From: Rhizaria sp. SCN 62-66
Taxonomy: Eukaryota
Length of the DNA: 64,000 bases
NCBI GenBank assembly: GCA_001724265.1
Contig: MEDY01000111.1
Span: 1 to 64,000, forward strand
Direction of reading: 5' to 3'
The notes beneath the pieces were generated by a model, which saw only the letters and a program-made list of their open reading frames with translations, was not told where the DNA came from and did no database searches. The translations under genes were made by a program, and so were the position numbers. This document shows, piece by piece, positions 1-48,200 of this stretch; positions within the stretch are counted from its first letter, which is position 1; each line of letters opens with the position of its first letter.

Positions 1-918
1 GCCGCCGCCGCTGCCGCCGCCGCCGCCGCGAGCTCGGGCTCCGGCGGCGGCGCGGGCGGCGGCAGCGGCCGCGGCGCCGGCTCTGGCGGCGCGAGCGCGG
101 CGGTGGGCGTGAGCGCGGCGGCCGCAGCGGCGCTGGCGGCGAGTGCTGAGCCCGTCGACAGCGGACTCCAGCTGCACAAGGGTCTGCTGGCGCTTGCTGC
201 GGCGGCGGAGCGTGAGGCGGCCACGGTTGCCAGCGCAATCAGCACTTATCTCTTGCCTCATCCAGCGCCTGTGGCTGCGAGCGCGTTGCAGCAACAAGGC
301 GGCGCGGTAACGGCGATGAGCGATAGCGCTTCGGCCGCCGAACAGCAGCAGCCGCAGCCGCGGAGTGCCGTGACGTTCTCCGCGGGCGGCTTAACTTCTT
401 CCGTTGGCGGCCTGACTTTCGTGACCCCGCGCGTGGTGCTTCCCGCGTTGGCGACGGCCCTGTCCGTGCCCGCTCCCGGTGCTGCCTCTCGCGCCGCGGC
501 CGCGGCTGCGCGCGCGCGGCTGATGCTGCTGCCCGGCGAGGCGGCCGCGCGCGTGCTGGTGCCTGTGCCGCGGCTCCGCACGGCGGCCGAGGTCGCGCTC
601 GTGTGGCGCGTCAAGGTGGCGCAGCGCGCGGCCGCCGCGGTCGCGCTATCCCACTATAGCGCGAGTGCCAAAGAGCACAAGGATGCGAGTGGCAATGACG
701 TCAAGAGCGAGGCTGACGCGGCTGCTGGTGCTGTGAAGACTGAGGGCAGTGGCAAGGTTGAGGGTGAGGGTGTTGCTGACAAGAAGATGAAGAGCGAGAG
801 CGACGCGGGCGCTGACGTTTTGTTGCCGTCATCCTCGACGGGCTCATCCTCGACGGGCTCGAAGGCAATGAAGGACAGCGACGACGCTGACGACGACGCT
901 GACCGCAAGGGGCGCGGC

Positions 919-982
<64 letters not shown>

Positions 983-1131
983 CGAGCGCCGGTGCCAGTG
1001 CACTGAGCCCCAGTAGCGCCGGCAGCGCGCGTTCGCGTAGACTCGCGCTCTCGCCCTCGTCTTCGTCGTCGACTCTGCTGGCACATTCCCAGTCGCAGTC
1101 TCCGCGCTCCCTGCGCGTGCCCGCTCCCACA

Positions 1132-1172
<41 letters not shown>

Positions 1173-3480
1173 TAATAACAACAGCAACGCCACTGTGAGC
1201 GATGGCGCTAGCTCATCGAGCGCGTCGACCACGGGCTCTGTCGCTGCTCCCGCTGCTGCTGCACCTGCGCCCGCGAAGCGCGACTCCCCGCCTTCGCGGT
1301 GGGTGATGGAGCCGCCGCCGTTCGCGCTGCAACCCGCGCCGCTTCCGCTGCACCTGCTGCTGCCTCTGCCGCCGGCCGCGCGCGCCGCGTCGGCCGCGCT
1401 GTTGCCAACTCCGTACTTCGGCACCGTGCTGGGCTCGGCGCTCGCACAGGCACACCCGGGCGTCGGGCTCGATGGCACCGCGGTCGCCGCGCCTGCGCAG
1501 CTCGCCGCTGCCGCCGCCGCCGCCTCGGTTGCCGCCGCCGCCGCCAGCGCGCCCATCCTCGGGCCCGGCGCAGGCTCGGCCGCGGGCGACGCCGCCGTCG
1601 CGGGCGCGGCCGGCGCGTCGCCGCTCGCCGGCTCGGCCGCGGGCTCCGGCGCCGGTGCTGGGGCCGCCGCGGGAGCTGGTGGCGCCGCGGGCGGGGCGGG
1701 TGGCGCGGGCGGCGCGGGCGGTGGATGGGGCTGGGGCTGGGGTTGCGAGGACGACCTCACGGCCGCCTACGCCGCCACGGAGCCCGCGTTCCCGGTGACC
1801 GCGCGCAGCGGAGGCGTCTGGGGCAAGGTCGGCGGCGCGGCGGCTGCGGTCGAAGTGTCGCGCGCTCTGTTAGGCCTTCCGCGTGGCCCACACGCCGCCG
1901 TGCGCGCTCCACTCGCTTCTGCGTTCGCTGCCACAGTCTCAGCGCCGGACGCCGAGGGCGCCTCTGCGACCAACGCCTCCAGCGTGTGCTCTAGCTCTGC
2001 TGCCGCGACCGGCACAAGGGCGAACACGAGCTCTAAGGGTCGCACCACTGCAAGTCATGACTACGACGGCGCGCGCACGGTACCCGCGGCGACTGAGGCC
2101 GACGCCGCCGCCGTGGCCGCCGCCGCGGCGTCCGTCACCTCCGTCCTCACGGGCACTGGCGTGGTCGCCAACGCTGCGGGCAGCGTCGCCGGCGCCTCGG
2201 GGCCCGACGCTTTCCTGGCGACTACGGCGCACGTCGTCGCCGCCGCCGCGACGGTGCTGCCGCTGGCGCTGCCGGGCACCGCGTCCGCTGCCGCCAACGC
2301 CGCTGCCGCGTCCGCCGCCGCGCAGGCTGCCGCTGCTGCCGCGGCGGCGGCCCAGCCTCGAGGCCGCGGCATGGTCGCCGCGCGCGGCACCGCCGCCGCC
2401 GCGGCCGCGAACGCCGCCGCCGCCGCGAGTGCCGCCGCTACCGCCGCTGCGACCGCTCGCGCGGGCGCTGGCGCTGCTGGCCGTGGCGGCGGCCGTGGCG
2501 GCGCTCGCGCGGGCTCCGGCGCGGGCCGTCTCGACGGCTTCGGTGGGCTCGGCCTGGGGACGGACCCGCTCGCGCTAGGGCTGGGGTTCACGTTCACGCC
2601 CTCCGCGCTGGGCGCCGCCGACACGGGCGCCGGCGAGGCCGACGGCGGCGGCGGCGCGGCGGGCGAGGGCGGCGACGCGGCGGGCGGCGCGGGCGACGGC
2701 GGAGAGCCGGGCCCATTCTGCTACTGCGGCGGCCCTGCGTACGGCGAAATGGTCGGCTGCGAAAACGTGGCGTGTTCGCTCGAGTGGTTCCACTTCGCCT
2801 GCGTCGGGCTTGAAACCAAGCCGCGCGGCGCCTGGTACTGCGTCAACTGCGACCCCAAGAACAAGCGCAAGCGCGGGCCCAAGGCCGGCGCCAAGGCCAC
2901 GGCCACCGCGGCTGCCACTGCGGCAGCGGCGGCCGCGGCGGGCGCTGACGTGATGCTGGCTGCGCCGCTGCCGTTGACCGGTGCCGCGCTAGCTGTCGTC
3001 GAGGGCGCAACTGCTGCTGACTCCGCTGCAGCAACCAACGGCAGCGAGGCAGCTGCCGCGGCTGCGGCTGCTGCGGTTGCAGTGACGGCTGCGGCGCTCC
3101 CATCCGTTGTCACGAGCATTAGCGACTCTGCCGCGCCGTCCGACGCAGGTGACTCTACCGGTCTCAGCGGCGCTGAGATGAGCACGGACAGCACTGGGCT
3201 GCCGGTTGTCGGTGCGGGAGCGCCTGCGAAGAAGAAGCTTGGCCGTCCCCCGATGCCTGAGGCTGTGCGCGCACTGAAGCGCGCGCGCAAGGCGCAGGGC
3301 CTGACGGGCCCGCCGCCGCAGGAGGAGCTTGAGGCGGCGCACGCACTCGCGCTGCAGCAGGAGCAAGAGCAGCAGCAGGTGTAGGTAGCTACAGCGATGA
3401 TGCAGCAACAGCTGGCGCAAGCACAGTTGCAGCACCAGTAGGCAGGTTTCGAGAGCAGTAGCATGAATACTCAGCAATGA
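1..3480 (+). CDS. ING-family PHD-finger chromatin protein, Ala/Ser-expanded, 5'-partial. Ends at TAG 3384 under the standard code, or at TGA 3480 if TAG is sense.
   Basis: Frame is open from base 1. ING-type PHD finger FCYCGGPAYGEMVGCENVACSLEWFHFACVGLETKPRGAWYCVNC at ~2716-2850, followed by the NLS-like KNKRKR and an AT-hook-like KKKLGRPP at ~3229-3252. The Gln-rich frame continues through TAG 3382-3384 and TAG 3439-3441 to TGA 3478-3480, where AT-rich spacer begins. Confidence 0.85.
922..981 (+). repeat. (AGC)20 coding microsatellite, poly-Ser
   Basis: Perfect AGC run, in frame within the ING-like CDS. Confidence 0.95.
1135..1170 (+). repeat. (AGC)11-AGT coding microsatellite, poly-Ser
   Basis: AGC run followed by AAT/AAC poly-Asn codons. 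Confidence 0.9.
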
Positions 3481-3771: not shown

Positions 3772-6700
3772 TTACCATTGCTCGCCTTCGACTGCAGGAG
3801 CAGCGGGTGCGTTGCCGGCGTTGTTGCCGACTTCAACGTTGTTACAGTTGGACTCCTCGGTTAGGGGTGACAGCAGCATGGTGGACTTGCGACCCATCGT
3901 GGTGCGCCTGCGCCGGCAGTCCACGAAAGCCAGGGACACGCGCCGCGGTTGTCCCTTAGGCACCTGCATGTTCGCGCTCATGGCGTCACCGTCACCTGTC
4001 GCGGCAGCAGCTGCGTGCGCAGTCGCTCCTGATGCAGCCGCTGCAGTGCCGGACGCGGTGTGCGCGTTAGCGCTAAGCACCGACGCGGGACTGCAGAGGG
4101 GCGAGAGTTCGAGGAACAGCTCGGCCCTGTTGCTGCTACTGACGCCGACTCTAAGATCACTGTAGTTCTCGGCAGCGACTGTAGCCGTCTCACATGCGGG
4201 AGAGGGCGTTGCAGGAAAGCTTGACGGTGAGTCGAGGCATGCACCAGCCTGCAGCATGCGCGCGCGCGCAGCAGCGCTTGTTTCGGTAGCACTCGATGTT
4301 GCAACAGCAGCGGCGCCAGTGGTCGCGTTGCGGTCCGTGTGCTGCGTTGGAATGGCAACATCGTGCGCTAACGAAGTCAGCGCCGACCACGTGTCGTGTC
4401 CGACAGCATCAGCATCGGGTGCGCTGTCGTTGTTGTCAGCGCAGTCGTCGTCAAGCTCAAACTGGTGAAGTGCAGCCGCAGCGGCATTCGCAGCAGCGCT
4501 GTCGTTGTCAACAGTCAGTGCAGCATCATCAACAGTGGCATTAACGATGGCATTGGCAGCCTCAGCGGCAGGCGCAGTCACATCGGCAACATCATCAGCA
4601 GGGTCAATAGCAGCAGCATCACTGAGCACGTTGCTTTCAGTCACGGTGTTGTCGCCACTGCTGGTCGCACTGGCGTCATCGACAGCAAACGCGTTGAAAT
4701 CGCTACTGTTGACGCTGAAGTCAGCAAACGTAAACCGACGACGGGGCCGCAGCTGCAGGCGCTTGTCACCATTCTGCTGCTCATGCTCCTGCGCTAAGGC
4801 AGCCTGTCCATTCCGTGCCGCGCTGCCGAACCCGACAGAGTGGGCAATGCCAACGCTCAGGCGGCGCACGCGCGCGCCCACGGTCACGGCACTGACGCTC
4901 GCGCCTTGCGTCACGACGCGCCACGCGAGCGCCGCGCGCCGATTCGCCTCGCTGTACACGGCAGCGACGCGGGCAAATGCGGGCGCGGTCGCGTCGCGTG
5001 CAGCAGTCACGGTTGAGGCCGCACTGGCGCGTGCAGAGAGCAGCGGCATGAGAACCGTCGTCGACACGCGAGCACGCACAGCGGCGGCGTGTTCCGGTGC
5101 CAACGTAGAGGCGGCGCGCCAAACCAGCGCGGCGAACAGGACCCAGCGATAGTGGCGGGCGACCCAGTCCAGCGGACGCAGCGCGCGGTCGCCAGCGCGC
5201 GCCACGGCCACAGTCGCGCGGCGGACACTGCGGGCACAGTGGCGAACTGACGCGGCGGTGGACTGGGCAGTCAGCGCAAGCTTGCGGGTGACGGTGAGAC
5301 GAGCGCCTGCACCAACATTGGGAGCAGGGGCAGCAGCTAAAAGAAAAGATCATAATGAATGCAAATCAGAGGATGTTAGAATTTAGTGAACATGAATAAC
5401 GTGCATAGGATAGGATAGTAGTCGTAATGGTGTTTTGCGTACCAAGAGTGGCTGCAACAACCTCAGCAGGCGGCGCAGAGTGCGAGGCAAAGCCGGCGCC
5501 ACTAGGGGCAAATGTGAAGAGCGGCCGCGAGGGCGGCGGGAGCAGGCTGTGCGCGGCGGGGCCGATAGAGCGCGCCGTCAGCGTGGCAGCGGCATGGTTG
5601 CTAGACAGCACAAACGCCAAGAGCTCGCGCGCGGAGTGCTCCTGTGCCTGCTGCAGCGCCAGCGCCTTCATGCACACGACGTCAGCGGCGACAGCGGAGA
5701 CGGCGGAGCCCACAGCCGCCACAGCGGCATCAGTGGCCAGGCTCGCGTTGCTGCGCGCGAGACCGACAGCGTTGAGCATCAGCGCCTTGGCGGTAGCGAC
5801 GTTAGCGCCAACGCTGATGCTTCCGTTGTTGACGGCCGTTGCCACGCGCAGCGCGGCGGTGCACGCAGCGCCCGCAGCGGCGCCCGCGGCGGCGTTGGTC
5901 AAGCCCGTGTACAGCGCGTCCGCCGCGACCGCGATGCCGGCGCCCGAGCTGCCGCCCAGCGAGCCGTTTGCGGCCGCGGCAGCCAGAGGGGCGGCGGCGG
6001 TGAGCACAGCGGGCAGCACCAGGCCGAGCGAGACCGAAGCCGCTGCGGACGCCGCGCGCACCATAGCGGACGACGGCAGTGCCACGCTGGCGGCGGCGGC
6101 GCTCACGCCCGCGCTGGAGACAGTGGCGGACACGGCGCCGACACCGGCGGCGGTGGCGGTCGCGGCCGTTGCAGCGGCGGCGGCGGCGGGGGAGAGTCGT
6201 GCAGTCAGTACGGCTGCGGCTGCGGCGGAGGAGGCCAGGTGCCGCGCCGCGCCGGTCGCGCCGGGGACGGCGAGGGCCGCGCGGGAGACAACCTTGGCGA
6301 GCAGCAGCAGCGGCAGCAGCACGAGGCGCTGCAGACGCAGCAGGCGCGGGAGCAGGAAGAGGAAGGGGCGCGTGAGCGGGGACAGCGCGGCTGCGGGGGG
6401 GAACATGTACAGCAGCACGGGCAGCGCGCGCTTAGTCGTGGCAACCACGGCTGTAGCATTGGGTGGAAAAAGGAGCGATGTTAGCAAGGAAAATGATTTG
6501 TAAAACATGAAGTGATAAGAAATCTTACGCGTTGATGCTTGATGAGAGGTTCGACGTACAGGGGGCGAGCGCAAGCGCAGAGTGGCAGTGCTCGATCACG
6601 AAGCTCGTCTGCCTTAACACAAGCACGGCGACGGCACGGAACCGCGCTAGCGCGAGCAGTGCCTGCTTGAGCGGCGCGCCCGCAGCGAGCGCGGCGGCGG

Positions 6701-9458
6701 CGGTGGCGCGCGGGTGGTGCAACGCGGTCCAGCACGCGGGCACTGTAGCGCGAAGGTAGAGCAGCGCCATGGACACGCGCCGCAGCAACCGCACCGCGGC
6801 CCAGGCCTCGCGGCCGCGCGCGTACAGCTGTTGCAGCGAGGGTGGCAGGAGCAGCAGCAGCGCCGGCACGCGGGAACGCGATCGCGAGCGAGAGCGAGAC
6901 CGTGAGCGTGAGTGGGATGCAAGGCGGCGCCGCTTGTCTTCGTGCTCGCAGGCAGCTGCGTCGTCACTGGGGGCGCTGTGGCGATGGCTGTGGGATGCGG
7001 GGCGAGGCGGGACAGCGTCAACAGCGGCATTGTTGTCATTAGTTAAGGTTGGAGTGAGCGGAGCAAGGGATACAATGTCATTCTCTGCATCATCACTGTC
7101 ATTGTCGTCGTCTGCGGCGTCATCGTCAGTCTCCTCGTCCGCATCGGCAGTCTTGGTCCGGCGCGCAACGGCACCGCTGCCAACACTGCGGCGGCGGCTG
7201 TGCGCAGTCACGACGCTGAGCCGGCGGCGGCCGCTGCTGTTGCTGCCCGTGTACGACAGACGGCCGCTGGGGCCGTGGCTGGGGCCAAGCGCCCCCACCG
7301 TGTCGCCGTCCTCCTCTCCGTCCTCACCGTGACCGCCAGTAGCGTTCGCCTGAGACTTTGTGGCGTATGCAAGGCCGCGGACAAGTGCAGCCCGTGCCGC
7401 ACCGGCAGCGGCGGACGCGGCGGCAGAGGCGGCGCGCGCGGCGGCCAGCGATGCGGGTGAGGCGAACACGTTCTTGACGAAGGCGCGGACCTTCGCTGGC
7501 GACCGCACGGAGTCCAGCGCGGCGGCCACGGCGGGCCCACCCCAGGCCGACGCCGCGGCAACCGCAGAGGAGACCGCGCCGCCCGCCGTCGCCGCGGCAG
7601 AGGCGGGCGCGGGGTGCGGCGTGGCCGGGGAAGACGGTGCGAGGGAAGAGAGAGGAGAAGAGAGCAGAAGCGTGGTCTTGTCAGCGCCGATGCTTGCATC
7701 ACCAGCAGCGCCGCCCGAGAGGCCTGATTCCGGAGCGGCGGCGGCGGCTGAGAATTGTGAGAACTGCGAGAAGGCGGAGCAGCACGGCGACGGCAACGCT
7801 GGCAGCGATTGGCGTTCGCGATCGTACTGAGTGGTCTGCTAAGGCTGCTGTTGCTGCTGCTCCGTGCAGTCAGTCTCAAACGCGGTGAGCAGCGATGCAG
7901 GGTCCTCCGCGTCATCGCTCTGCGCCATAGACTCCGTCGTAGCAGCTGAGGGCCCAGAACCAGAATGCGCCGCAACCGCGGGAGCGCTGGGCACAGCGGC
8001 CGGGGAAAACGGGGTCGCAAACCGAAGCCGGCTGCCGTGCTACTGCTTCAGAGCGTTCGCGGCGCTCACCGCCGTGCTTGCACTCGCAGTCACATGGCTG
8101 TTGCTCAACGGTTCATCATCAGAAATTGTGCTTTCGGCATGGCCCTTAGATGGTGTAAGTACCTGCGCCGGTTGGGGCGACATAACGCTGAAACTGCGCT
8201 TACGCCGTGCACTCTTGCGCTTCGCCGCGCTCTCGCCTCTCACCGTGGGCTTAGCAATGGGCGTGGGGGCGGGCGACAGCGCGCGCAAAGCTGCGGCGGC
8301 AGCGGAGCTCACCGCTGAGCTCACTGCAGCCGCGGCGAACGCGCCGCCGCGCCGCAGCAGCGGCGACGAGTGGCTGTACAGAGCGCTCGCTGCGCCCGCG
8401 GTGGCGGACGCGGCGGAGGCGAGCAGCGACCCGGCCTGCACCGGTGCAAGCGCAGGCGCGGGAGTCACCGTCATGGGTTGCGTCGCAGTTGCAGCCGCCG
8501 TGGCGGTGGCTGTGGCGATCGGGGCGAGAGGGGGGCGCGTGCGGACGGGGGTCGATGGAGCCGCACTAAAAATGTTGCTGTGCTGAGGAGTTGACTGAAC
8601 GGCGTTCACTCGCACGGCGGTCACGGCGGCAGCCTCTGCAGCGGCGACGGCTTCAGCGGCGGCAGCGGCGTCGGCTGCGGCCGAGGCAGCGGCGAGAGCG
8701 ATGGCAACCGAGCTGTAGCAAGTTCTGTTGTCATTTTCCGACACAGTCTTAGACTCGATAACAGCGTCGTCAGTAGTGCAGGCAACTGTCGGCATTGCGT
8801 TGAGCGCAGCACTGCAAAGGTCACTGGTGTTGCCGGCATGGTTGTTGCCCAGAGGGCTGCTGTAGTTGTTGTTGCTGTCGTCGTTAATGGCGGCTGTGTC
8901 AACATCATCAGTGCTATCAATGGGCACATACATCACGTCGTCATGATTAGCGCCAGGATCAGCCACTGCAGCAGAGTCAGCCAGTGCACACACGTCTTTG
9001 CCTCCCTCTTGGCTCTCTGTGCTGCTCTTGCCGTTCGCGGCCGCTGCGTCGTCGTCGTCGCCGTCGCCCCAGAGCACCGCGAAGGACGACAGCATCGCGG
9101 TCACGCGGCGGCTCGAGCGGCGGCCCTTCTTCGCAGAAGCCGCGCTGTTGTCGCCCATCGTAGAGGGCGTAGCGCGGGGGTGGGGAAGCGCGAGGGGAGC
9201 GGGACTGGGCAGGCCGGCGCCTGCAGTAGCAGACGCGGGTGCAGTTGCGGAGGGTGTGGCAGTGCGAGCCTTGAGCGCGAACGAGGCCGGAAACGGGGAA
9301 AAGTGGTGTTCGGGTTCGTGCCGCTTAAACACTGGCGAGAAAGCCTTCCGCAGTTCCGCGGTGTGTGGCGTGCGGCTGAGACCCATGCTGAGACCGAGTC
9401 CGGCGCCGGGGGCGGCTTCGTTCTCGTTGGAGCTGCCCAGCTGCATGCGCGCGTCCAT
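3772..9458 (-). CDS. Large uncharacterised low-complexity protein with several hydrophobic segments (~1823 aa if the two in-frame TAGs are read through). Exons 9458-6560, 6450-5443, 5336-3772.
   Basis: ORFs 8040..9458 and 6525..7796 are in the same frame and separated only by TAG 8042-8040 and TAG 7841-7839. Introns 6559-6451 (GTACGT...GCTAAC...TACAG) and 5442-5337 (GTACGC...TTTTAG) join the downstream ORFs in frame (both phase 1). Ends in TAA at 3772. Contains an RS-repeat and hydrophobic stretches such as WVLFAALVW. Confidence 0.65.
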
Positions 9459-10020
9459 CTTTGTTAGCTCACAGAAGGGCGTATCAAGGGCTTATGGTTA
9501 TGTTTTTCTCACCAAACAAATTTAAATCTAGGGTAAAATAAGGTAGCCCAAGAAACAGTGATATCGGGTGAGTTTATATACCGTGGGAAGTGAACGGACA
9601 ATTAGGTGAGATCGAGGAAACGCGCTCATGTGATGGTTCCTGTTATTCAGCAGCCGCGAAGTTAAACATCCGTCGTTAGAAAATCAAAAGACATATCATA
9701 ACTTTCCGTTATTGATGAAATACATAGATATAATTATTTTCGCTATAAAATGTGATCATATGAGGCAGATAATCGAAACGCTTGTCCAACGGCTAGATCG
9801 CTTCGGTCAGGCGAGTTGACATACAGTATTTGTTTTCTTACATGTACGTCAACGCTACAGTTGTTGCCGGACTTGCACATCATTTTTGACATAGGTTTTC
9901 GATGAAACATAAATATAATTGATTTTTCCTGATTGCTCAAGCAACAAAATTTAATATAATTGTATGACAATTGTTCTGGCGTTTCTTCAATGGCTTGAAC
10001 AGGTTTGACCAAGTCTGACG
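9459..10020. promoter_or_regulatory. Divergent AT-rich intergenic region, probable bidirectional promoter
   Basis: 562 bp between head-to-head start codons at 9458 (-) and 10021 (+). No specific motif identified. Confidence 0.45.
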
Positions 10021-11488
10021 ATGTCATCAGACGCGTCATGGATTCGTTTTCTTACTGGTGGTACTGCCTCATGTCTCGCTGAAACTGTTACTCTGCCGGT
10101 AGACACAGCAAAGGTACATTATATATCATGATAACGCATATTATTCATTTGCCGACCCGACGTCCTTGCGTGCGTATCCGACATGATGTCAGGAGTCACT
10201 TCAAGTTGGCGAATGCATCAATCTCCACAGACTACTTCTCACCTCGTCGTTGAATCATATTCAAACTTTGTGCAAGTTCTGTTTAGGTACGCTTGCAAGT
10301 ACAGGCAGCGTTGGGTGCGCAGGGTCCGCGCTACGCAAGCGGCTGGGACTGCCTGAAGAGCGTCGTCAAGCACGAGGGCCCCAGCGCGCTGTTCAAGGGC
10401 CTGTCCCCGGCGCTGATGCGGCAGGCGTCATACTCGTCGTTGCGTATAGGTTTCTACGAGCCCATCCGCAACGTGCTTGCGCCAGGCACCGCTGCCAAGG
10501 ATATCTCGTTTGCCAAGAAGGCGATCGCGGGCGGCACCGCGGGCGCTGCGGGGATTGCCATCGCTAACCCCACCGAGCTCATCAAAGTCAGGTACGCAAT
10601 ATAGGAGCATTAACAGGTGATAAGAAAGACCATAGTGCAATTTGGCGCGAGCATACTTAACCTAGTGTTTACACGCTCATGCAACTTATCCTTGCTGATA
10701 TTATCTAAAATCTCCCCAGGATGCAGGCGGACAAGACCGGTCTGCGCTACCCCAACGGCGCCGTGCGGGCGCTCGTCTCTACTGCGCGCACTGAGGGCCT
10801 GCGCGCGCTCTGGCGCGGCGTCACGCCCAACATGCAGCGCGCGTACATCGTCAACGCGGCCGAGCTTGCAACCTACGACCACGCCAAATCCATCCTCATC
10901 TCGGCGCTCTCGTTGTCGCCGACGAGCGCGATCACCCACGTGGCGGCGTCTGTCGCGGCCGGGGCCGTGGCAGCGCTGTGCTCGCAGCCGGTCGACCTCG
11001 TCAAGAACAGGCTCATGAACCAAGCTGCCGCAACGACTACGGCGGCTGTTGCTACGCACAGCAACCTCGCCAGCGTTGTTGCTGCTAATCTGAATTGCAA
11101 CTCTGGAAGCGTTATCCTTAACGTCACAACAGCTGCGCATCTCGCCACCGCAACGCCGCTGCGCGCCACCAGCGTCGTCGCCGCACTCCCCGGTCTGGCC
11201 ACCGTTAATGCATCCCCGCCGTTTCCCGGCGCTGCGACCAGTTGTCTGCTGGCGACCGGGCGCGCCCCCACAGCAGTGGGCGTGAGCAGTGCGGTCGACG
11301 GTGGGGTGCGGTATAATGGTATGCTCGACTGCGCGGTCAAGACCGTGCGCGCGGAGGGTGTGGCGGGGCTCTACAGGGGAATCCTGCCGTACAGCTGCCG
11401 CATTGGGCTCTTTTGCGTGGTGATGTTTCCCGCGTACGAGCAGCTGCGCGCGCTGGGCGAGTGGAGCGTCGCGAGGGAACGGCTGTGA
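10021..11488 (+). CDS. Mitochondrial carrier (SLC25), uncoupling-protein/UCP4-UCP5-like, 388 aa. Exons 10021-10113, 10287-10591, 10720-11488.
   Basis: Splicing restores three carrier signatures: PVDTAK|VRLQ, PTELIKVR|MQ and PVDLVKNRLM. UCP-type PNMQRAYIVNAAELATYDHAK is present. Introns 10114-10286 (GTACAT..TTTAG) and 10592-10719 (GTACGC..CCCAG). Stop TGA. Exon 1 is absent from the ORF track. Confidence 0.92.
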
Positions 11489-22556: not shown

Positions 22557-25500
22557 TCACACCGTTGTGGCAGGAGCAGGCGCAGCCGGCGCAGCCGTAG
22601 CAGCTGCAGGAGCAGCAGCAGGAGCAGCAGTGGTAGCCGCAGCTGCAGCGGTGACAGCAGCGGCATCGGCCTCGCCCTCAATGGCGGCAACCACGGGTGC
22701 AGTCATCCTGGCTGCAGCGGCAATGTTATCCCGGATCTGTTGCATGCGAAGTTGCGTCTCGTACACGCCCATCTCGAGGTCGCGGACCTTGTCCTCCTCG
22801 CGCGCCACGTAGCGGTAAAACGGCGTCACGGCCATTGCCATCGCGCGCTCCGCCGACTCGATCTCGCGCGTGTACTGCTGCAGCAGCTGCTCACGCACTT
22901 CGTTGTGCAGCGCGTCGATCTTGGCGCCCAGCTCCTTGTTGAGCCGCGCGCGCTGCGACGGGAGGATGACAAACCCGGCGAGCGCGACTGAGCCTGCGCC
23001 CGCGAGCCCCGCAGCGTCGAGCACGGCGGCCGCGACCAGCCCGGACAGGCCCAGGGCGCCCAACTCAACAGCCGCCGTGGCCATGACGGCCTTTTGCACC
23101 GCCTGCACCATGCGCGCGGTCTCGGCCTAGAGATCACGGACAGCAAGAAACAAGAGAGAATATAACGTGAGCAATATAGAAATAACATAATAGCATTAAA
23201 TTAATAAAATACGATTTACACTGCATTGATGAGTGAAATTATAAAATATTTCTAAAAAAAATGCAATATTCAAGAGAAATCATTGTTTTTAATGATCTAA
23301 TGTTAACGGACCTGGCGCTTGGCCTCGGCGACGGTGTCGCGGCAGGCGGCCTGGATGCTGGCCAGCACCTCTGCGCGCGAGTGGTGCAGGTCCACCCCGG
23401 CGGCGCGCACAAGGTCAACCTGGCGCGAGAGGTCCAGAGGACCGGTCATCGTCGCGGCAGCGGCGGCGGCGGAGACGGCGGCGGAGGCTGCGGCAGCAGC
23501 ATTGTCGCTGGCAGCCTTTTCACTCACAGTTGCGGGCGCAGTTGCGGGCGCAGTGCTCGCAGCGGTAGCAGCGGCCGCGTCAGTGGCAGCAGCAGCAGCA
23601 GGGACAGCGACAGGAGCAGGCGCGGCCGGAGCAGCAGGAGCCGGCGCATTGTTATTGTTACTGCCAGAGCCAGCGGTGGCAGAAACAGAGCGCTGCATGA
23701 TGTGTGCAAGCGCCTGCGCCTGCCGCGCGCCCTTGTGCACCAGCCAAGCTGACATCGTGGCCAGAATGGCGTCGACCTCCGCAGACACGCCCGCGTTGAC
23801 GGCCTTGTCGTAGCTCTCGCGCAGCTGCTTCGAGCCAAGCAGCAGCGACGGCATGTTCACCACGCGCACGTGCTTGTTCAGGAAAGCCGTGCTGTCGCGC
23901 CGCATGCGAAGGAACACGTTGTCGAGCTTCGCCAGCTGCGCCTCCAGGTCGATCAGCGCTTCCTTGCGGAAGTCGCGCGTCTCGGCCTGGAGCAGCGACC
24001 GCGTCTCGACGTCGGTGGCCAGAGTGCGGCGACGTGCGGCCAGAACGTGGTCGTAACGCCGGATGACTGTGTCGGCGACCGAAAGCGGGTTGCTGAGCTT
24101 GAGCGCAACCTTGCGCTCGTCAGCGAGCTCCGACAGCACGTGTCGCTCCAGTTCGCTGAAACCGCTGTTGACGATAAGCGCGCGCGCCGCGGCCTGCGCG
24201 GCGGCGGCGGACGCGGCGGACATGTGGGGCACCCGGCTGTTGGCCCCCGCGCTGCTGCTGCTCGGGCTCTGCGGGCTAGAAGCGGCGAGCGCGAGCTTGC
24301 CGTCGAGCGCAAGGCGGGAAGAGACGCCGAACACGGGCGGCACTTCCTTCAGCACGACCTTGGCGTTCGAAGCGACGAATGCGCGGACCTCGTCGAAGGA
24401 CGTGCCGGCGTCGGAGCTGCCGTCCGCGTACACGTGCGGTACGCTCGAGTCGAAGTGTTGCATCGTGTGCTCCGCGCGAGAGGCAATGCTCTCGTCGTGC
24501 CTGTGGCCGTGGCCGCTGTTGCTGTTGTTGTTGAGATTCGAGTTGGAGATGAGCCCCGTGGACGCGAGAGTGGGCACGACTAAGTCGACCTTGTTGAGCA
24601 CGATGACGACCTTCTTGCGCCACTGTGCGATCTTGGACATAAACTGCTTTTCCGATTCACTGAACGGCCGCTCGACCGATGTGACGAAGAGGATGAGGTC
24701 CGCCGACGGGATGAACCGCTCTGTGATCTCCTGATGCTCCCGCAGCACTGCGTTAGTGCCCGGCGTGTCGACCAGGTGCGCCTGCTTCAGCCAGTCAACC
24801 GGCAGCAGCACCGTCTGGATCGAGCCGTCGTTGCGGCGCACACTCGTACTCGCGCTCGCGGTCGCGCTTGTATTGGCGCTAGCGCTCGCACTCGAGGACG
24901 CAGCAGCATCAGCGTTAGCGGTGGCGTGCGCGCCAGTGCTGCTGCTGTTGGCTGCAATTACCGTGGGCGTGGGACCGTACTTGAGGATTTGCACCTTCTC
25001 GGTCGTGGGCAGAATGCCGGTGCGGCAGTGGCGCGCACCCAAGAGCGCGTTGATGAAGTTGCTCTTGCCCGAGTTGAACTCGCCGACGACGACGACAAGA
25101 AAGAGCTCCGACAGCGAGTCGCGCGCGGCCGCCAGCAGCTCCGCGTCCTCGGCCGAGAGCCCCAGCGGAGACAGCACGGCGGGCACGGCGTCCAGCAGCG
25201 CGCGGATCTCGCCCAGCACCGCCTTCTGCGCGGGGTTGAGCAGCGCATCGAGGGTATAGTCGGCGGCCGAGAGCGCGGCGTCGACCGCCGGGGACGCCGC
25301 GGCCGCGGAGGGCGCGGTGAACGCCGCCGACGCGCCGGCTCCTGCGCCGCTGCTCGTGGGGAACGCGCTGGCGCTAGCGTTCGTGCTCGAACTCGGGCCC
25401 GTGTTGGCGGCGCTGGAGGAGGAGGAGAAAGCGCGGACCCAGTGGCGGGAGGCAGTGGAGGTGCGAAGAGCCGCGGCGGAATCAAGGGTGGCTGCGGACG

Positions 25501-26274: not shown

Positions 26275-26723
26275 ATGCCCAAGATTGCTGACGACCAGAA
26301 GGCTGACCTCGCGTGCACCTGCGCTGCCCTCATCCTCTCCGACTCCAACACTGCTGTCTCGTACGTTCTCCTCCCGGAATGATCATCAAAATCATCAGCC
26401 CTGCGTCTACTCCCTTTCTTGGTCTCATTAGCGCATCACCCGCTTTCACACCGCTCACACATATTTGACTGCTTGACTCTAACCTGTATATTGCTCATGT
26501 CTGCGACTTTAGCGCCGACAACATTGCTGCCATCCTGGCCGCTGCCGGCTTCGACAACATCGAGGGCTACTACCCCAAGCTCTTTGCCTCCGCTCTTGAG
26601 GGCAAGGACATCGGCGCCGTCCTCTTCGGTGGCAACGCTGGCTCCAGCTCCTCCTCTTCCTCCTCCTCGGGCTCCTCCTCCTCCGGCTCGTCCTCTTCTG
26701 ACTCCTCCTCCGACTCCGATTAA
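26275..26723 (+). CDS. RPLP1: 60S acidic ribosomal protein P1-like, 98 aa, with an atypical Ser-rich C-terminus. Exons 26275-26360 and 26513-26723.
   Basis: Spliced translation: MPKIADDQKADLACTCAALILSDSNTAVSADNIAAILAAAGFDNIEGYYPKLFASALEGKDIGAVLFGGNAGSSSSSSSSSGSSSSGSSSSDSSSDSD*. The P1 motifs LACT.AALIL.D and PKLFA.AL are present, with C-ending codon bias typical of high expression. Intron 26361-26512 (GTACGT..TTTAG). Stop TAA. Missed by the ORF track. Confidence 0.85.
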
Positions 26724-27606: not shown

Positions 27607-30255
27607 ATGCTTCCCCAAGACGCAATGTGGGCCTCGAACCAACTCAAACGCGTACAGGCCGAGTTGACGGACCTGCGCCTGGAGCGCGACGCGCCGCTCA
27701 GCATGCTCGATACTGAGATCGCTCCGCACAACGAGGCATGGGCCGCGTTCCCCGACTCCAGCGACGCATGGACCGCTCAAGTCCAAACTGCACTTCAGCT
27801 TGCCGACAACACATCGATCGATTCAACCACCCATCGCCGCGCTCCCCCTGGCTCGGCCCCCGTAGCCGCGGCCCAGCGCGAGCGCGACATTGCTTTTGCG
27901 CGCTCCATCAACGCCGTCACCGACGACCTGACTGCGCGCGCGCTCGTGCACTCGCATGTCGGACCCGGCAGCTCTATTGCTGGTGCATTCCTGCCCGCGC
28001 AGGGCCCGAGTGACAAGGATTGCATTCAGGCCGTGAATGCTCTCAAAGAAGCGCTCAAGACAGTGTACCCACTGCTCACGGCCGCTTGGGTTCCAACCGT
28101 TGCGTCAGCCAAGCCGCACACGGGCGATAACATTGCGGCCTTTCTCTCTGGCAACACCATTGCCTCTGACGCGACTGACAGCAGCAATAATAGCGGTACC
28201 GCGAGCGCAAAGAGCGCTGGTGCCAAGACTGTCGGTGGCGCGTTCAAGCCCACTGCCGCGCTTGCCACTGGTCTGGCCGCCGCGGCGCGCTCTCTGGCGC
28301 AGCAGCCCGTGCTTAGCGCGTTCCACGCCATGTTCCTGCAGGAGTCGCGCGCGGCGCTTATCCGCGGCCGTGTCGCCGTGTACGCCAAACCGGGCGAGAC
28401 GGACGCCAAGAACGGCAAAAACAAGACCAAATCCACGGGGTTCAGCTTTGGCGCGAACAATGACACCGACAACGATAGAGACTCCGCGCCCAACGGCCGC
28501 TTTGTTCAGTCCGCTGCTTTTGTCACGCCGCTGTTTTCTACCGTGTACTCTGTTGTCACGACGCTCGTGCTGGGTCTCGCGGTCCAGCCCGTGCCCGCCG
28601 CCGACAACTTAAGCAACTACAACGGCAACACTGACGGTAACGCCGCAAGCAGCAACAGCAGCGGAAGCTCTAGTGCTGGTGTGGAGCGCGCTGTGGACGC
28701 AGACTGCCGCGCGGCTGCGCTGCACTTGCTGGCCACCATCGCGGCTGTCACCGGCGACGCTTCGCGCGTGACCGTGGCCATCGCAGCGCTGCGCCGCGCC
28801 GCGCTCTCGGCCGCCGCGCCCGCCGCTGCGGCCGCGCTGCCCGCCGCGCCCGGCTTCCCCTGGCGCGGCGGCTACGCCCCCGGGGCGCTGTCTGCACTCG
28901 CCGCCGCTCTCGGCCAGGCGTGGCCCGCGCTCAGTCAGCTGAGCTCTCTCACGCCCACCGTCGGTCTGGTGACTCCTGGCGCCAGCGCGGATACGGCGAT
29001 TGCGGAGCTCGTCGCTGCGGCGGCCGCACTCACTGCGGCAAGTGACAAGGACAGCAACAACAGCAGCAGTTCGGCTGCTGCCAAGACCGCGGGCAGTGAA
29101 GCGACTGCTGCTGCTCCCGCTGCTCTGGCAAGCGCTAAGAGCGCTGTTGCTGCGGAGGCTGCTGTGCCGCGGCCGAGCCCGTCGCTGGTGTGGGCCGGCC
29201 ACCGCCACGCCATCGTCGTGGGCACCGATTCGCGGTACTACTCGCTACATGTAGTCAATCAGAAGAAACAGTACAGCAACGGGCCCTTCTCCTCGGACTC
29301 CGACTCTGCCGCCGCGGGCTCTGCCCAACCCAACGGCGCGGCGACCGCGGCGTGCGCCCGCGCTCTGGCTGGCGAGCGCGACAGCGCCGCGACGCTCGTC
29401 TCCGGCTCTGCGGAAGGCCTATTAAGCGGCTGGCACGCCACCGCGGCTGGGCTGGCCTGGCATCCTGGAGATGCGCTGCTGGTCGGCGCGGTCAACGGGA
29501 AGTCCGACTCGTGCACGCCGACCAACGGCACGTTCAACGCGCAGGTGCTGTACTTCGACAACGCCGAAATGGCACTGGCGCGGTGGGAGGATCTGCTCGC
29601 CGTGGCCATGGACTTGTCCGTCGCTGTGCAGCACTCGGAGGACAAGTACAACGAAGGCGACCTGTTGCCGCTCTCGGGCCTTCTTGTGCTCGACGGCGAG
29701 GTAGTCGACGAGGTCATCGGCAGCGCCAGTCTCGACCGCGAGCCCGTGGTGCGCGGCGACATCCTCACGGCGACGTTCATGTCGCAGTTGCGCACCCGCG
29801 AGACGGACCCGCTGCGGCCGGGTGACGAGTCCGTCACGCAGCCCGTCATGAGCGCGCGCCAGGACATCTACAATGCGCTGCCGCCCCTCTGGCGCGCGCC
29901 ATGGCTGCGCAAGGCCTCGCTCTCACGTTGGTGCATCCGTGCGCCGCTGCAGGGGCCCGCGCCTGTGTTGGGCTTCACTCTGCCCGCCGGCGCCGCGCTG
30001 GCTCTGCTGCCGCCCGCGGTGCGCGCTGCGATGGGCGCGACCACGACGCTGGCGCCCAACAGCACGCTTGGCTACGCGCCCCGGCCCGGGGTCGACGCGA
30101 TGACTCTGTTCTTTACGCCGCAAGGTCGCGCGGTGCCCGGGCTGGTGCTGTCGGCCGAGGCAATCCGGCAGATCCTGCTCGTGCTCCGCAACGTGATTCG
30201 CCGCGTCGCTGCCGGCGAGGCCAAGCTGCGCGCTGCCAACGCCTCCAGTAGCAGC

Positions 30256-30291
<36 letters not shown>

Positions 30292-45200: not shown

Positions 45201-48200
45201 GGCGTGGGCGTACAAGCGCTGGGCCGAGCTGCACGCGCGCTGCGCCATGGCCGGCGTGTCGCCGCTGTGCGCGAACAACCCGCTGCGCGCTGTCAGCGCA
45301 CTGCTGCCGCTGGGGCCGGACGTCGAACTCCGGCTGCTGCGCCATCACGCCATGGGCACGTACAAGCGGCCGGAGCACCAGGGCCGCCCGCTGCTGGCGT
45401 CAATGGTCATCCACGACAAGGGCGACGGCGACCAAGATAGCGATGAGAACCTCATCGCCGCAACTGCTGGTACCGCTGCCCAAGTCGATAAGGCCGATGC
45501 GGCCAAAGCAGATGCCGAGGCCGATGAAGTTGACTTAGAGGCGGACGGTGCGGAAGGGGATGATGTCGAGGGTGATGTTGAGGGCGATCTTGAGGGCGAT
45601 GCCGAAGGCGACGTCGAGCAAGAGCAAGGTGACGGCGAGGCCTCTATCGACCCACCCAGCAGTGTCACCTCTGAGGCTGCTAAGAAAGAGCTAGTTGTGC
45701 GTGATGCGAGCGACACAGTTGCCTCGTCGAGTGCTGACAGCTCTGCAAGCGCTCTGGTCTCTGCTGACGCTGCCGCCCAATGCGAGACCGAGACTTCCAA
45801 GGCACGTGTTATGTTCCCCCCATTTGTGGACTCGGACCCGCTTGTGCCGTGGCAGCGCGAGATGGCGGTGAGCAACTGCATTACGGGCTTCTCGTTCGAC
45901 TCAATGGGAACAAAGATTTACGGCAGCTTCACAATCATCATGCGCCACAGCGTCACCTCGCCCGCGCGCGGGCCCACGGCGTCGACGCTCCCCAGCTGGG
46001 CGCAGCGTCCGCTGATGCCCACGTGCGAGGGTGCGTACACTTTCACGGGGCATTTGGAAGTCGATGACGTTCACCTTCCGGCCGCGCTTCCCGCCGCCGC
46101 GGCCGCCTGGCCCGGATCACAGCCGTTCGCGCCTGAAGCCGGGCTTCTCACACTCATTGGCGTCGCAGGCATTGGCAACACTGATGCTGCCGACGCTGCC
46201 TCTGCGGCTGCGCTGGTCGAGAAGAGCGAAAAGACCGGACCGATGGCGCTGTGCACCGCCGCGTTGCCGCGGTTCCTCGCCGACCTTGACCGGCGCGAGT
46301 GGGGCGTGGCGAGCGCAACCGCCGTGGCGGAGACCGCTGCGGTGCAGAGCATCCAGGGCGTGGGCGCGACGGCCGACTTCAAGGGCTCAGCCGCGCTGTT
46401 CATGACTCCGCCGCTCGACGCCGATCCGCTCAAGGACGCGCTGGCGTTCCCTGCGCTGCTGCTTGACGCCTTTGTTGCCGCGCACACCACGCAGAGCAAC
46501 GACAAGCTCTCTTGGCGCGCGCTCGTCGCTCCCCAGCTCGCGGCCGCCACCGCCGATGTCAGTGCAGCTGGCAGCCCGAGCGAGGGCGCGGTGATGGCCG
46601 CGCTGGCGCTGCGGCTGTCGGCGCTGTTAGCGCACCGCCACCCCGTGGCCGAGCACCTCCGCAGCCTGCCGACGGGCAACGTGCCGGGCCACCAATGCGT
46701 ATCGTCGAGCGCGCGGTCGCCGGGCCCGGCGCTGCCGCCCGTGGTGGTGATCGACCCCACAGGCCGCGTCATCTCGGAGCCAGTGTGCCCGTCCGCGGCC
46801 GCGCTCGTCAAGCGCCTGCTCGTTGCCGAGCTGTACGCCGAGGCCGCGGCCGACGCGCCGGGGCCTGTGACGGCGTTTGTCGCCGCCGGACTGCAACTCG
46901 CGCTTACGGCCGCGCTGGCCGCCCTGATCGAGTCGGTGTCTCCGACACTGGGCAGCTCGATTGCCACCGAGAAGCTCCCTGCGCTGCTCGAGCGCATTTC
47001 CGCCGCCGGCCGCGGCACGGGCGAGAAAGCCAGCGACGCGTGGGCCGAGTACCGGGCCGCGCTGCCGCCTGCGCTGCTGCCGCTCGTGGTGCAGCTTGCG
47101 CCCGCCGTCGAGCTTAAGGCCGCCGTGCGCTACGCGCGCGTGGTCGCCGCCGAGAAGCGCGCCGCTGGGCTCATGCGCCAGCGGCAGCGTAGCGGGCAGC
47201 CGATTGCGCCGCCAGAGCTCGAGGCTGCTGCGTGGGCCGCCACCGCGCACCACTACACCATGCAGCGCTCGTCGGTGCTGAACTTGTTCCTGTCCGTCGC
47301 GCTCGAAGTGCTCGCCATCCCGGCTGGCGTCGCGCCCGCAGCTGTGGCGCCCGTGCTCGGTGAGCCGCGCTACCTCCGCGAGCCCGCTGCCGTGACCGCC
47401 GCGAGCGCCACTGGTGCCGAGGGCGCGTCTGCGGTGGTTGCGTACATGGTGCGCCACGTGTTCAACACCGCGACGACGCGCCTCGTGGCCGCCAACGCGA
47501 CCGCAGCGGCGCACACGATGAAGATTAGCTTCTGGCCGCGCCCCAGCAAGGTGACGCAGGAGCCAGCGCTGCTGCCGCTGGCTTCTCTTGCCAGCACGCC
47601 CGCCGTGCTCGCCAACGTCGCCGCGTGGCCTATCGTCGCGTCCCCCACGCGCGCGGCTCCCGGCGCGCTGTCCGTACTGCCCGCGACGCTGATGTCCGTC
47701 TTCGCAGCGCCGCCCCTGTGGTACGCGCCGAACCGCAGCCGCGTGTTCGAGGAGCACCCACGCTCGGCCGACACGTCCACCGGCGGCAGCAGCACGACCT
47801 TCTGGGCCGGCGTCGCGCCCGCCGTGGCGCCGCTGCCCGGCGCGGTGCCGCCCGCGCTGCCGCCGCCGCTGGACGCGCCCACCAACGACGCGCTGCTGCT
47901 CAACGAGTGGGTGTGTCTCGGCGGCGGCGTGCGCCTGCGCCAGGACTTCCTGCCGCAGGCCGCCATGATCGCAGTCTCGATGCGCGGCCGCGTCAGCCCG
48001 CTGCTGGTGCTGCCTGGCGAGTGGCTGCGCCTGCTCTCGGAGCTAGTCGACGTCACTGCGCGCGCGGCCTCTGCGCTGCCCCGCGCCGCAGTCCCTCGCT
48101 TGGGGCTCGGCGCCGTGGCGCAGGCCATCGCGGCTACGCGCGTGGCGACTGCGCTTAACCGCACCGTATCGCTGCTCTCGCTCGTGCCTTCGGCGCCACT

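Follow-up and report, generated by a model that had tools for sequence, protein, structure and literature searches.

Three described systems are among the closest counterparts of the locus considered here, a minus-strand gene with two in-frame TAG codons (TAG1 and TAG2) in a 64,000-nucleotide (nt) stretch of DNA from Rhizaria sp. SCN 62-66 (positions 1 to 64,000 of contig MEDY01000111.1, assembly GCA_001724265.1; hereafter, the window). The intronization model, in the part of its description drawn on here, predicts that the exonic region concerned bears a stop, has latent splice sites, is divisible by three in length and lies in a long exon (Catania and Lynch, 2008; PMC2586383). Exitrons, in the sections of the source used for this comparison, are stop-free introns inside coding exons, and their retention gives the full protein (Marquez et al., 2015; PMC4484396). 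In nuclear codes in which UAG alone has been reassigned, conserved genes commonly carry in-frame UAG, with 1.6 to 5.4 per gene in the portion of the published data consulted (Panek et al., 2017; PMC5304391). We found a single gene at the locus, with three exons, whose alanine-rich product is an orphan protein of low complexity with about 1.7–1.8 thousand residues. Our tentative preference, held at less than even confidence, is that both TAGs are absent from the mature messenger RNA (mRNA) of a long isoform, a 324 nt segment at 8162–7839 being spliced out as a young, exon-derived intron.

Compared with the intronization model, as far as the cited part of PMC2586383 goes, the segment has the expected multiple-of-three length (324 nt, or 3 × 108), two premature stops, latent splice signals and exon-like sequence, and it lies in a 2899 nt exon in the 5' third of the gene. 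It differs in that five AG dinucleotides precede the 3' splice site here, so that use of the acceptor is doubtful, and in that its splicing and its exonic ancestry are putative. The likeness to exitrons, within the sections of PMC4484396 used, consists in the position inside a long coding exon, the weak splice sites, the multiple-of-three length and a guanine plus cytosine (GC) content, given here as a fraction, of 0.617, between that of the introns (0.26–0.47) and that of the flanks (0.731 and 0.716). Unlike exitrons as described there, the segment holds two in-frame TAGs and its retention truncates the protein; a defining feature is thus lacking, and strictly speaking the segment is no exitron. 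With the UAG-only codes, in the data consulted from PMC5304391, the locus shares in-frame TAG in coding-like sequence, and TAA or TGA stands at 11 of the 12 gene ends in the window. In contrast to those codes, there is no in-frame TAG (and no TGA) in 11,317 sense codons of the conserved HECT, VID27, dynamin-like and Rho genes, all of which encode Pfam domains, whereas the two TAGs found here are 67 codons apart in one orphan gene.

A single gene with two in-frame TAG codons

The gene model consists of the following features, which include the open reading frame (ORF) that ends at the first TAG:

3772..9458, minus strand: whole gene model, three exons, 5472 nt coding, 1823 codons and TAA
6560..9458, minus strand: exon 1, 2899 nt, with both TAGs; ATG at 9458, where AT-rich DNA gives way to GC-rich DNA
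8040..8042, minus strand: TAG1, codon 473; with its neighbouring codons, CAG TAG CAC GGC
7839..7841, minus strand: TAG2, codon 540; with its neighbouring codons, CCT TAG CAG ACC
8043..9458, minus strand: ORF ending at TAG1, 100% identical to database protein P0002 (472 amino acids) over residues 1–472
6451..6559, minus strand: intron 1, 109 nt, GC 0.40, GTACGT..CTAAC..ctacag
5443..6450, minus strand: exon 2, 1008 nt
5337..5442, minus strand: intron 2, 106 nt, GC 0.34, GTACGC..CTAAC/CTGAT..ttttag
3772..5336, minus strand: exon 3, ending with TAA at 3774–3772, AT-rich DNA directly after

Codons 473 and 540 and the terminal TAA are the only in-frame stops of the joined model. Both TAGs lie in the frame of the stop-to-stop ORFs 8040..9491 and 6525..7838, exactly as in the sequence-only reading that had first pointed out two TAGs in a minus-strand frame. 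That reading had the frame and the two TAGs of the joined ORFs right, but it began the downstream ORF at 7796, which is merely the first alternative start codon; the ORF reaches 7838. Its estimate that termination here would cost about three quarters of the protein agrees with the model, in which a stop at TAG1 keeps 472 of 1823 residues. Two donor-like sites, GTACGT at 6559 and GTAAGA at 6528, lie 31 nt apart near the end of exon 1. Because only GTACGT at 6559 keeps the frame into exon 2, whereas use of the site at 6528 leads to a stop six codons into exon 2, the end of exon 1 was placed at 6560. Both downstream introns join the frames of their exons correctly, in line with the intact splice sites that had been described for this part of the gene.

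Coding potential was assessed with a codon-usage score trained on four conserved genes against the other five frames of the same genes. The frame of the gene model (frame 0) scores highest in all 50-codon windows between about 9450 and 6525, and the frame switches exactly at both AT-rich introns. For the 66 codons that separate the TAGs, the score is +13.5 bits in frame 0, compared with −41.3 and −12.1 bits in the two remaining frames. Stretches of the HECT gene of equal length, taken in frame, have a mean of 25.5 bits (standard deviation 8.8), with 17% of them at or below 17 bits and none at or below 0; off-frame HECT pieces have a mean of −41 bits and never exceed −5.6. The local GC around the TAGs is 0.59–0.69, compared with 0.26–0.47 in the introns (n = 8) and 0.3–0.45 in intergenic DNA, so that, as had been claimed, no AT-rich spacer separates the two ORFs. 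After TAG2, the sole in-frame ATG in exon 1 is at 6770.

Both ORFs are therefore parts of one gene that is continuous now or was so until recently. The earlier proposal of a single gene is borne out by the same coding frame across and between the TAGs, the lack of a spacer, the sole later ATG at 6770 and the introns that keep the frame. It is very improbable that there are two genes by design, namely a 472-residue gene stopping at TAG1 and an independent gene downstream. Such an arrangement would agree with the database ORF P0002, which ends at TAG1, although in all likelihood P0002 is a simple ORF call that has not been curated as a gene model. An AT-rich intergenic spacer, present at every gene boundary in the window, is missing here, and a start at 6770 would leave 1068 nt of coding-like frame-0 sequence as a GC-rich untranslated leader. 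The other coding-like blocks in the window (~16,600 codons) are, each of them, uninterrupted ORFs bounded by AT-rich DNA.

A candidate intron that spans both TAG codons

Position matrices for donors and acceptors were built from the eight introns of the window only (106–185 nt; GC 0.26–0.47), whose donors are GTACGT in three cases, GTACGC in two, and GTACAT, GTAAGC and GTCCGT in one case each. All GT..AG pairs that remove both TAGs and keep the frame were taken as candidates. As a control, TAG pairs 67 codons apart were planted at 46,709 positions in the 52,645 nt of coding sequence in the window. The features that bear on splicing are listed below, with a slash marking the exon–intron boundary:

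7839..8162, minus strand: best formal intron removing both TAGs, 324 nt, GC 0.617, phase 0, total 12.9 bits
8155..8165, minus strand: donor-like site cag/GTACTTAC, 10.1 bits
7869..7873, minus strand: branch-like motif CTGAC, starting 35 nt from the 3' end of the formal intron
7839..8069, minus strand: formal intron of the sequence-only reading, 231 nt; donor gcg/GTGAGC −4.1 bits, total −1.2 bits

In every formal intron considered, the acceptor is the AG of TAG2. Removal of 8162–7839 would join CAG (8165–8163) to CAG (7838–7836) with the loss of 108 codons. The score of this interval, 12.9 bits, was reached by 518 of the 46,709 planted pairs (1.1%), and the same score together with a YTRAY branch motif by just 29 of them (0.06%). 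When each of the true introns was left out in turn, five of the eight scored at least 12.9 bits; a YTRAY motif 25–43 nt from the 3' end is likewise found in five of the eight. The candidate donor, GTACTT, has a score (10.1 bits) inside the leave-one-out range of the true donors (4.2–12.6 bits), and donors as strong as cag/GTACTTAC occur three times in the 52,645 nt of coding sequence. The GC of the segment is below that of both flanking 324 nt stretches, and its first 120 nt have a flat GC by codon position (0.55/0.55/0.55). The segment is neither duplicated nor inserted sequence: a search for repeats found low-complexity GC-rich ones only.

One formal intron of a length divisible by three takes in both TAGs, inside it or at its edge; nothing is disrupted in the remaining 1821 codons or in the two introns further downstream. 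By simple arithmetic, a random second stop would fall within 67 of the ~1350 codons downstream of TAG1 in about 5% of cases. Removal of 8162–7839 by splicing would explain why the TAGs cluster in one short multiple-of-three segment and why the remaining 1821 codons and the introns are intact, and it would also account for the presence of a rare strong donor, in phase, 120 nt upstream of TAG1. The segment would be excised through the strong latent donor cag/GTACTTAC and a putative branch site at CTGAC, with the AG of either TAG2 or the next CAG as the acceptor. Loss of the segment, which lies in phase 0 and is divisible by three in length, would keep the frame, and the product would have ~1715 amino acids. 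Such an intron could have arisen by intronization, a route by which latent splice sites rescue a gene from a premature stop, and transcripts that retain the segment would end at TAG1 and would either give the 472-residue product or be degraded. Since the segment has the composition of an exon and a frame-0 codon bias, the intron, if real, would be young and made from coding sequence. The sequence itself shows that the gene is continuous, how seldom such splice-like signals arise by chance and that other genes lack in-frame TAG; that splicing occurs, how old the intron is and what becomes of unspliced RNA we infer from these features.

Several observations weigh against this tentative preference. 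Position +5 of the candidate donor is T, whereas true donors, which are close to GTAMGY, have G (seven of eight) or A (one of eight) there. The acceptor, ccttag/, scores 2.8 bits and is weak, true acceptors ranging from −3.8 to 15.4 bits. Between CTGAC and the acceptor there are five AGs, four of them in in-frame CAG codons, compared with none in the five motif-bearing true introns, and splicing at an earlier in-frame CAG would retain TAG2 in the mRNA. With its GC of 0.617 and length of 324 nt, the segment falls outside the range of the true introns on both counts, so that splicing comes at the cost of a kind of intron that is otherwise unseen in the window. The segment also keeps a frame-0 codon bias, with +7.1 bits for 8192–8043 in addition to the +13.5 bits between the TAGs. 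No database protein was found to span the 8163/7838 junction, a result that counts for little, as the protein records of this genome resemble simple ORF calls. Finally, the matrices and the intron comparison rest on n = 8; a rare GC-rich class of introns may therefore exist, and the small sample is itself a weakness of the case for splicing.

A different splice pattern around the TAGs appears very improbable. The sequence-only reading had mentioned a phase-0 intron of 231 nt; a formal GT..AG interval does exist at 8069–7839, but its score is no better than chance, being equalled or beaten at 24,463 of the 46,709 planted pairs (52%). Alternatively, two introns, 8162–7946 and 7827–7748, might surround a 118 nt exon in another frame. 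Each of these patterns restores frame 0, and the four sites of the two-intron pattern score 9.6, 6.3, 5.7 and 4.4 bits in the first version of the matrices. Its middle exon, however, would be read in frame 1, for which the scores over this stretch are −34 to −43 bits, against positive ones for frame 0, and the pattern was rejected on codon usage. All of the introns in these patterns would be GC-rich. A 123 nt intron running from 8162 to TAG1 as its acceptor was also considered and rejected, the acceptor score being below zero.

The TAGs as possible premature stops or sense codons

A serious, if doubtful, possibility is that the TAGs are real premature stops, produced by recent nonsense substitutions that left either a 472-residue product or a young pseudogene; the 1350 downstream codons would then be undecayed and the splice-like signals coincidental. 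This would explain without any extra assumption the exon-like GC and the frame-0 bias of the segment, which looks as if it had been translated until recently, and it agrees with the lack of GC-rich introns in the window (none of eight). Of the possible substitutions in the coding sequence, 1.75% create stops, and 163 of these 286 stops are TAG; with TAG as the commonest single-substitution stop in the gene, two TAGs are unremarkable. The gene is an orphan, its product is predicted to be disordered, and it may thus be weakly constrained. The ORF ending at TAG1 is identical on 6 contigs, which makes a one-off assembly error unlikely. Truncation, on the other hand, requires two things to coincide by chance: that the stops lie so close together (about 5%) and that splice signals of this quality are present (1.1% of the planted pairs). 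It also has to accommodate 1821 other codons that show no frameshift, extra stop or damaged splice site despite the repeat-rich sequence. With a young pseudogene or nonsense allele of a lineage-specific gene, the locus has in common premature stops in an otherwise intact gene, low complexity and the lack of homologues. It differs from such a case in that its two lesions lie close together between splice-like signals, and in that frameshifts or other lesions are absent elsewhere in the gene.

Decoding of TAG as an amino acid at this locus, through a changed code or programmed readthrough, is in our judgement very unlikely. The frame-0 coding signal does persist across both TAGs, and each of them is followed by C; a stop codon followed by C is a relatively leaky context. 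Only one of the 12 gene ends in the window is TAG (six are TGA and five TAA). This sole TAG terminator (3382–3384) is the end of a PHD-finger gene, an end that no homologue verifies, and it is followed in frame by 18 codons, TAG, 12 codons and TGA. The sequence UAG-CAR-YYA is a programmed readthrough motif; it occurs at neither stop, TAG1 being followed by CAC GGC and TAG2 by CAG ACC. Against decoding as sense stands the count of zero TAGs in the 11,317 codons of the conserved genes, to which the ~16,600 codons of the other coding-like blocks add none. The tail past the TAG of the PHD-finger gene has no coding signal (−4.6 and +2.5 bits), there is no transfer RNA (tRNA) gene in the window, RNA folding around the stops is like that of shuffled sequence (z = 0.61), and two successive leaky stops would multiply the loss of full-length product. 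By comparison, known UAG-only codes hold 384 in-frame UAGs in 71 genes and 204 in 126 genes in the data consulted from PMC5304391. Two TAGs within 67 codons and none elsewhere thus point to a local cause and not to a property of the code. Reading of TAG as glutamine or leucine as a general trait of the organism is likewise unsupported, given the same zero count; readthrough is needed in no other coding block, and the window has no tRNA gene. We give hardly any credence to a variant in which TAG would be a rare or context-dependent sense codon of a sparsely sampled and possibly fungal lineage, used only in low-complexity genes that evolve fast, so that conserved genes are without it. The TAG..TAG..TGA tail of the PHD-finger gene (3382–3480) would then be a second example. 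About one tenth of the probability, a small remainder, was given to none of the explanations named here.

Encoded protein and homologue searches

The encoded protein is of low complexity, with 24.7% alanine and many short repeats. The Atlas model of the exon-3 ORF has a predicted local distance difference test (pLDDT) score of 0.43. No Pfam family was matched by any piece of the protein. A search with read-through exon 1 (TAG translated as glutamine) among 1.84 billion representative proteins found only P0002, the 472-residue ORF of this very locus, and P0002 as the query found itself alone. Residues 474–977 had no match in a word-indexed search among proteins of 537–1710 amino acids, and the Atlas gave no usable match for the exon-3 ORF.

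The public protein records of the contig (P0002, P0003 and the Atlas record at 3775–5349 on the minus strand) resemble prokaryote-style ORF calls, none of them spans an intron, and they are not to be taken for gene models. The Atlas record of the exon-3 ORF begins at an internal residue 'read as M'. As the P0002 record looks like a plain ORF call, it is uninformative on expression of the gene.

Neighbouring genes and base composition

The window consists of eukaryotic nuclear DNA in which base composition differs sharply, coding blocks having a GC of 0.6–0.8 and introns and intergenic DNA one of ~0.3–0.45. The neighbouring genes are as follows:

1–3384, plus strand: PHD-finger protein gene
about 10040–11488, plus strand: mitochondrial carrier gene
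22132–20333, minus strand: VID27 homologue
25834–22557, minus strand: dynamin-like GTPase gene
26276–26723, plus strand: P1/P2-type acidic ribosomal protein gene, two exons (PF00428, E = 1.6e-07, profile positions 3–60 of 88)
27598–56415, plus strand: HECT gene, one uninterrupted ORF of 9605 codons with the HECT domain at its end
to 58381, plus strand: Rho-type GTPase gene, C-terminal end CIVM

The tail of the PHD-finger gene (3382–3480, plus strand) sits where the GC drops, and its 18 codons are glutamine-rich; one further gene in the window also has a GC-rich stretch past its stop. At most stops in the window, AT-rich DNA begins within a few bases. The four conserved genes have a third-position GC of 0.76–0.88, yet five of the 12 genes are terminated by TAA.

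The lineage is poorly sampled. The closest relatives of the VID27 homologue are 69% identical and the next ones 40%; the Atlas clusters that share its short form come mostly from Zoopagomycota, which is a weak lead. The P1/P2-type protein has a serine run as its tail and ends in DSD, an acidic C-terminus being usual for stalk proteins of this type. The HECT gene is intronless, whereas genes nearby have introns. Its sole Pfam match is the C-terminal HECT ubiquitin-ligase domain (E = 2.3e-16), and no Pfam family was matched by residues 1–5000 of the ORF. Neither tRNA genes nor Rfam matches were found within the window.

Perfect or near-perfect trinucleotide arrays are present in coding sequence and include (AGC)20, (CAG)12 and (CAG)15 (e.g. 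922–981, 1134–1169 and 30246–30290). Tandem Repeats Finder reported 114 rows in the window, with periods that are nearly all multiples of three.

Implications

If the 324 nt segment is unspliced, the locus is an ordinary truncated orphan gene, and the practical lesson goes no further than that an ORF call stopping at TAG1 leaves out three quarters of a gene that was continuous until recently. If the segment is spliced, it would be an intron caught in the act of arising from coding sequence after a premature stop. Such an intron would be easy to recognise in this genome because the composition of exons (GC 0.6–0.8) is sharply separated from that of introns (~0.3–0.45). Splicing of the segment would provide a direct test of the intronization hypothesis and would give grounds to seek more GC-rich introns with multiple-of-three lengths in the genome.

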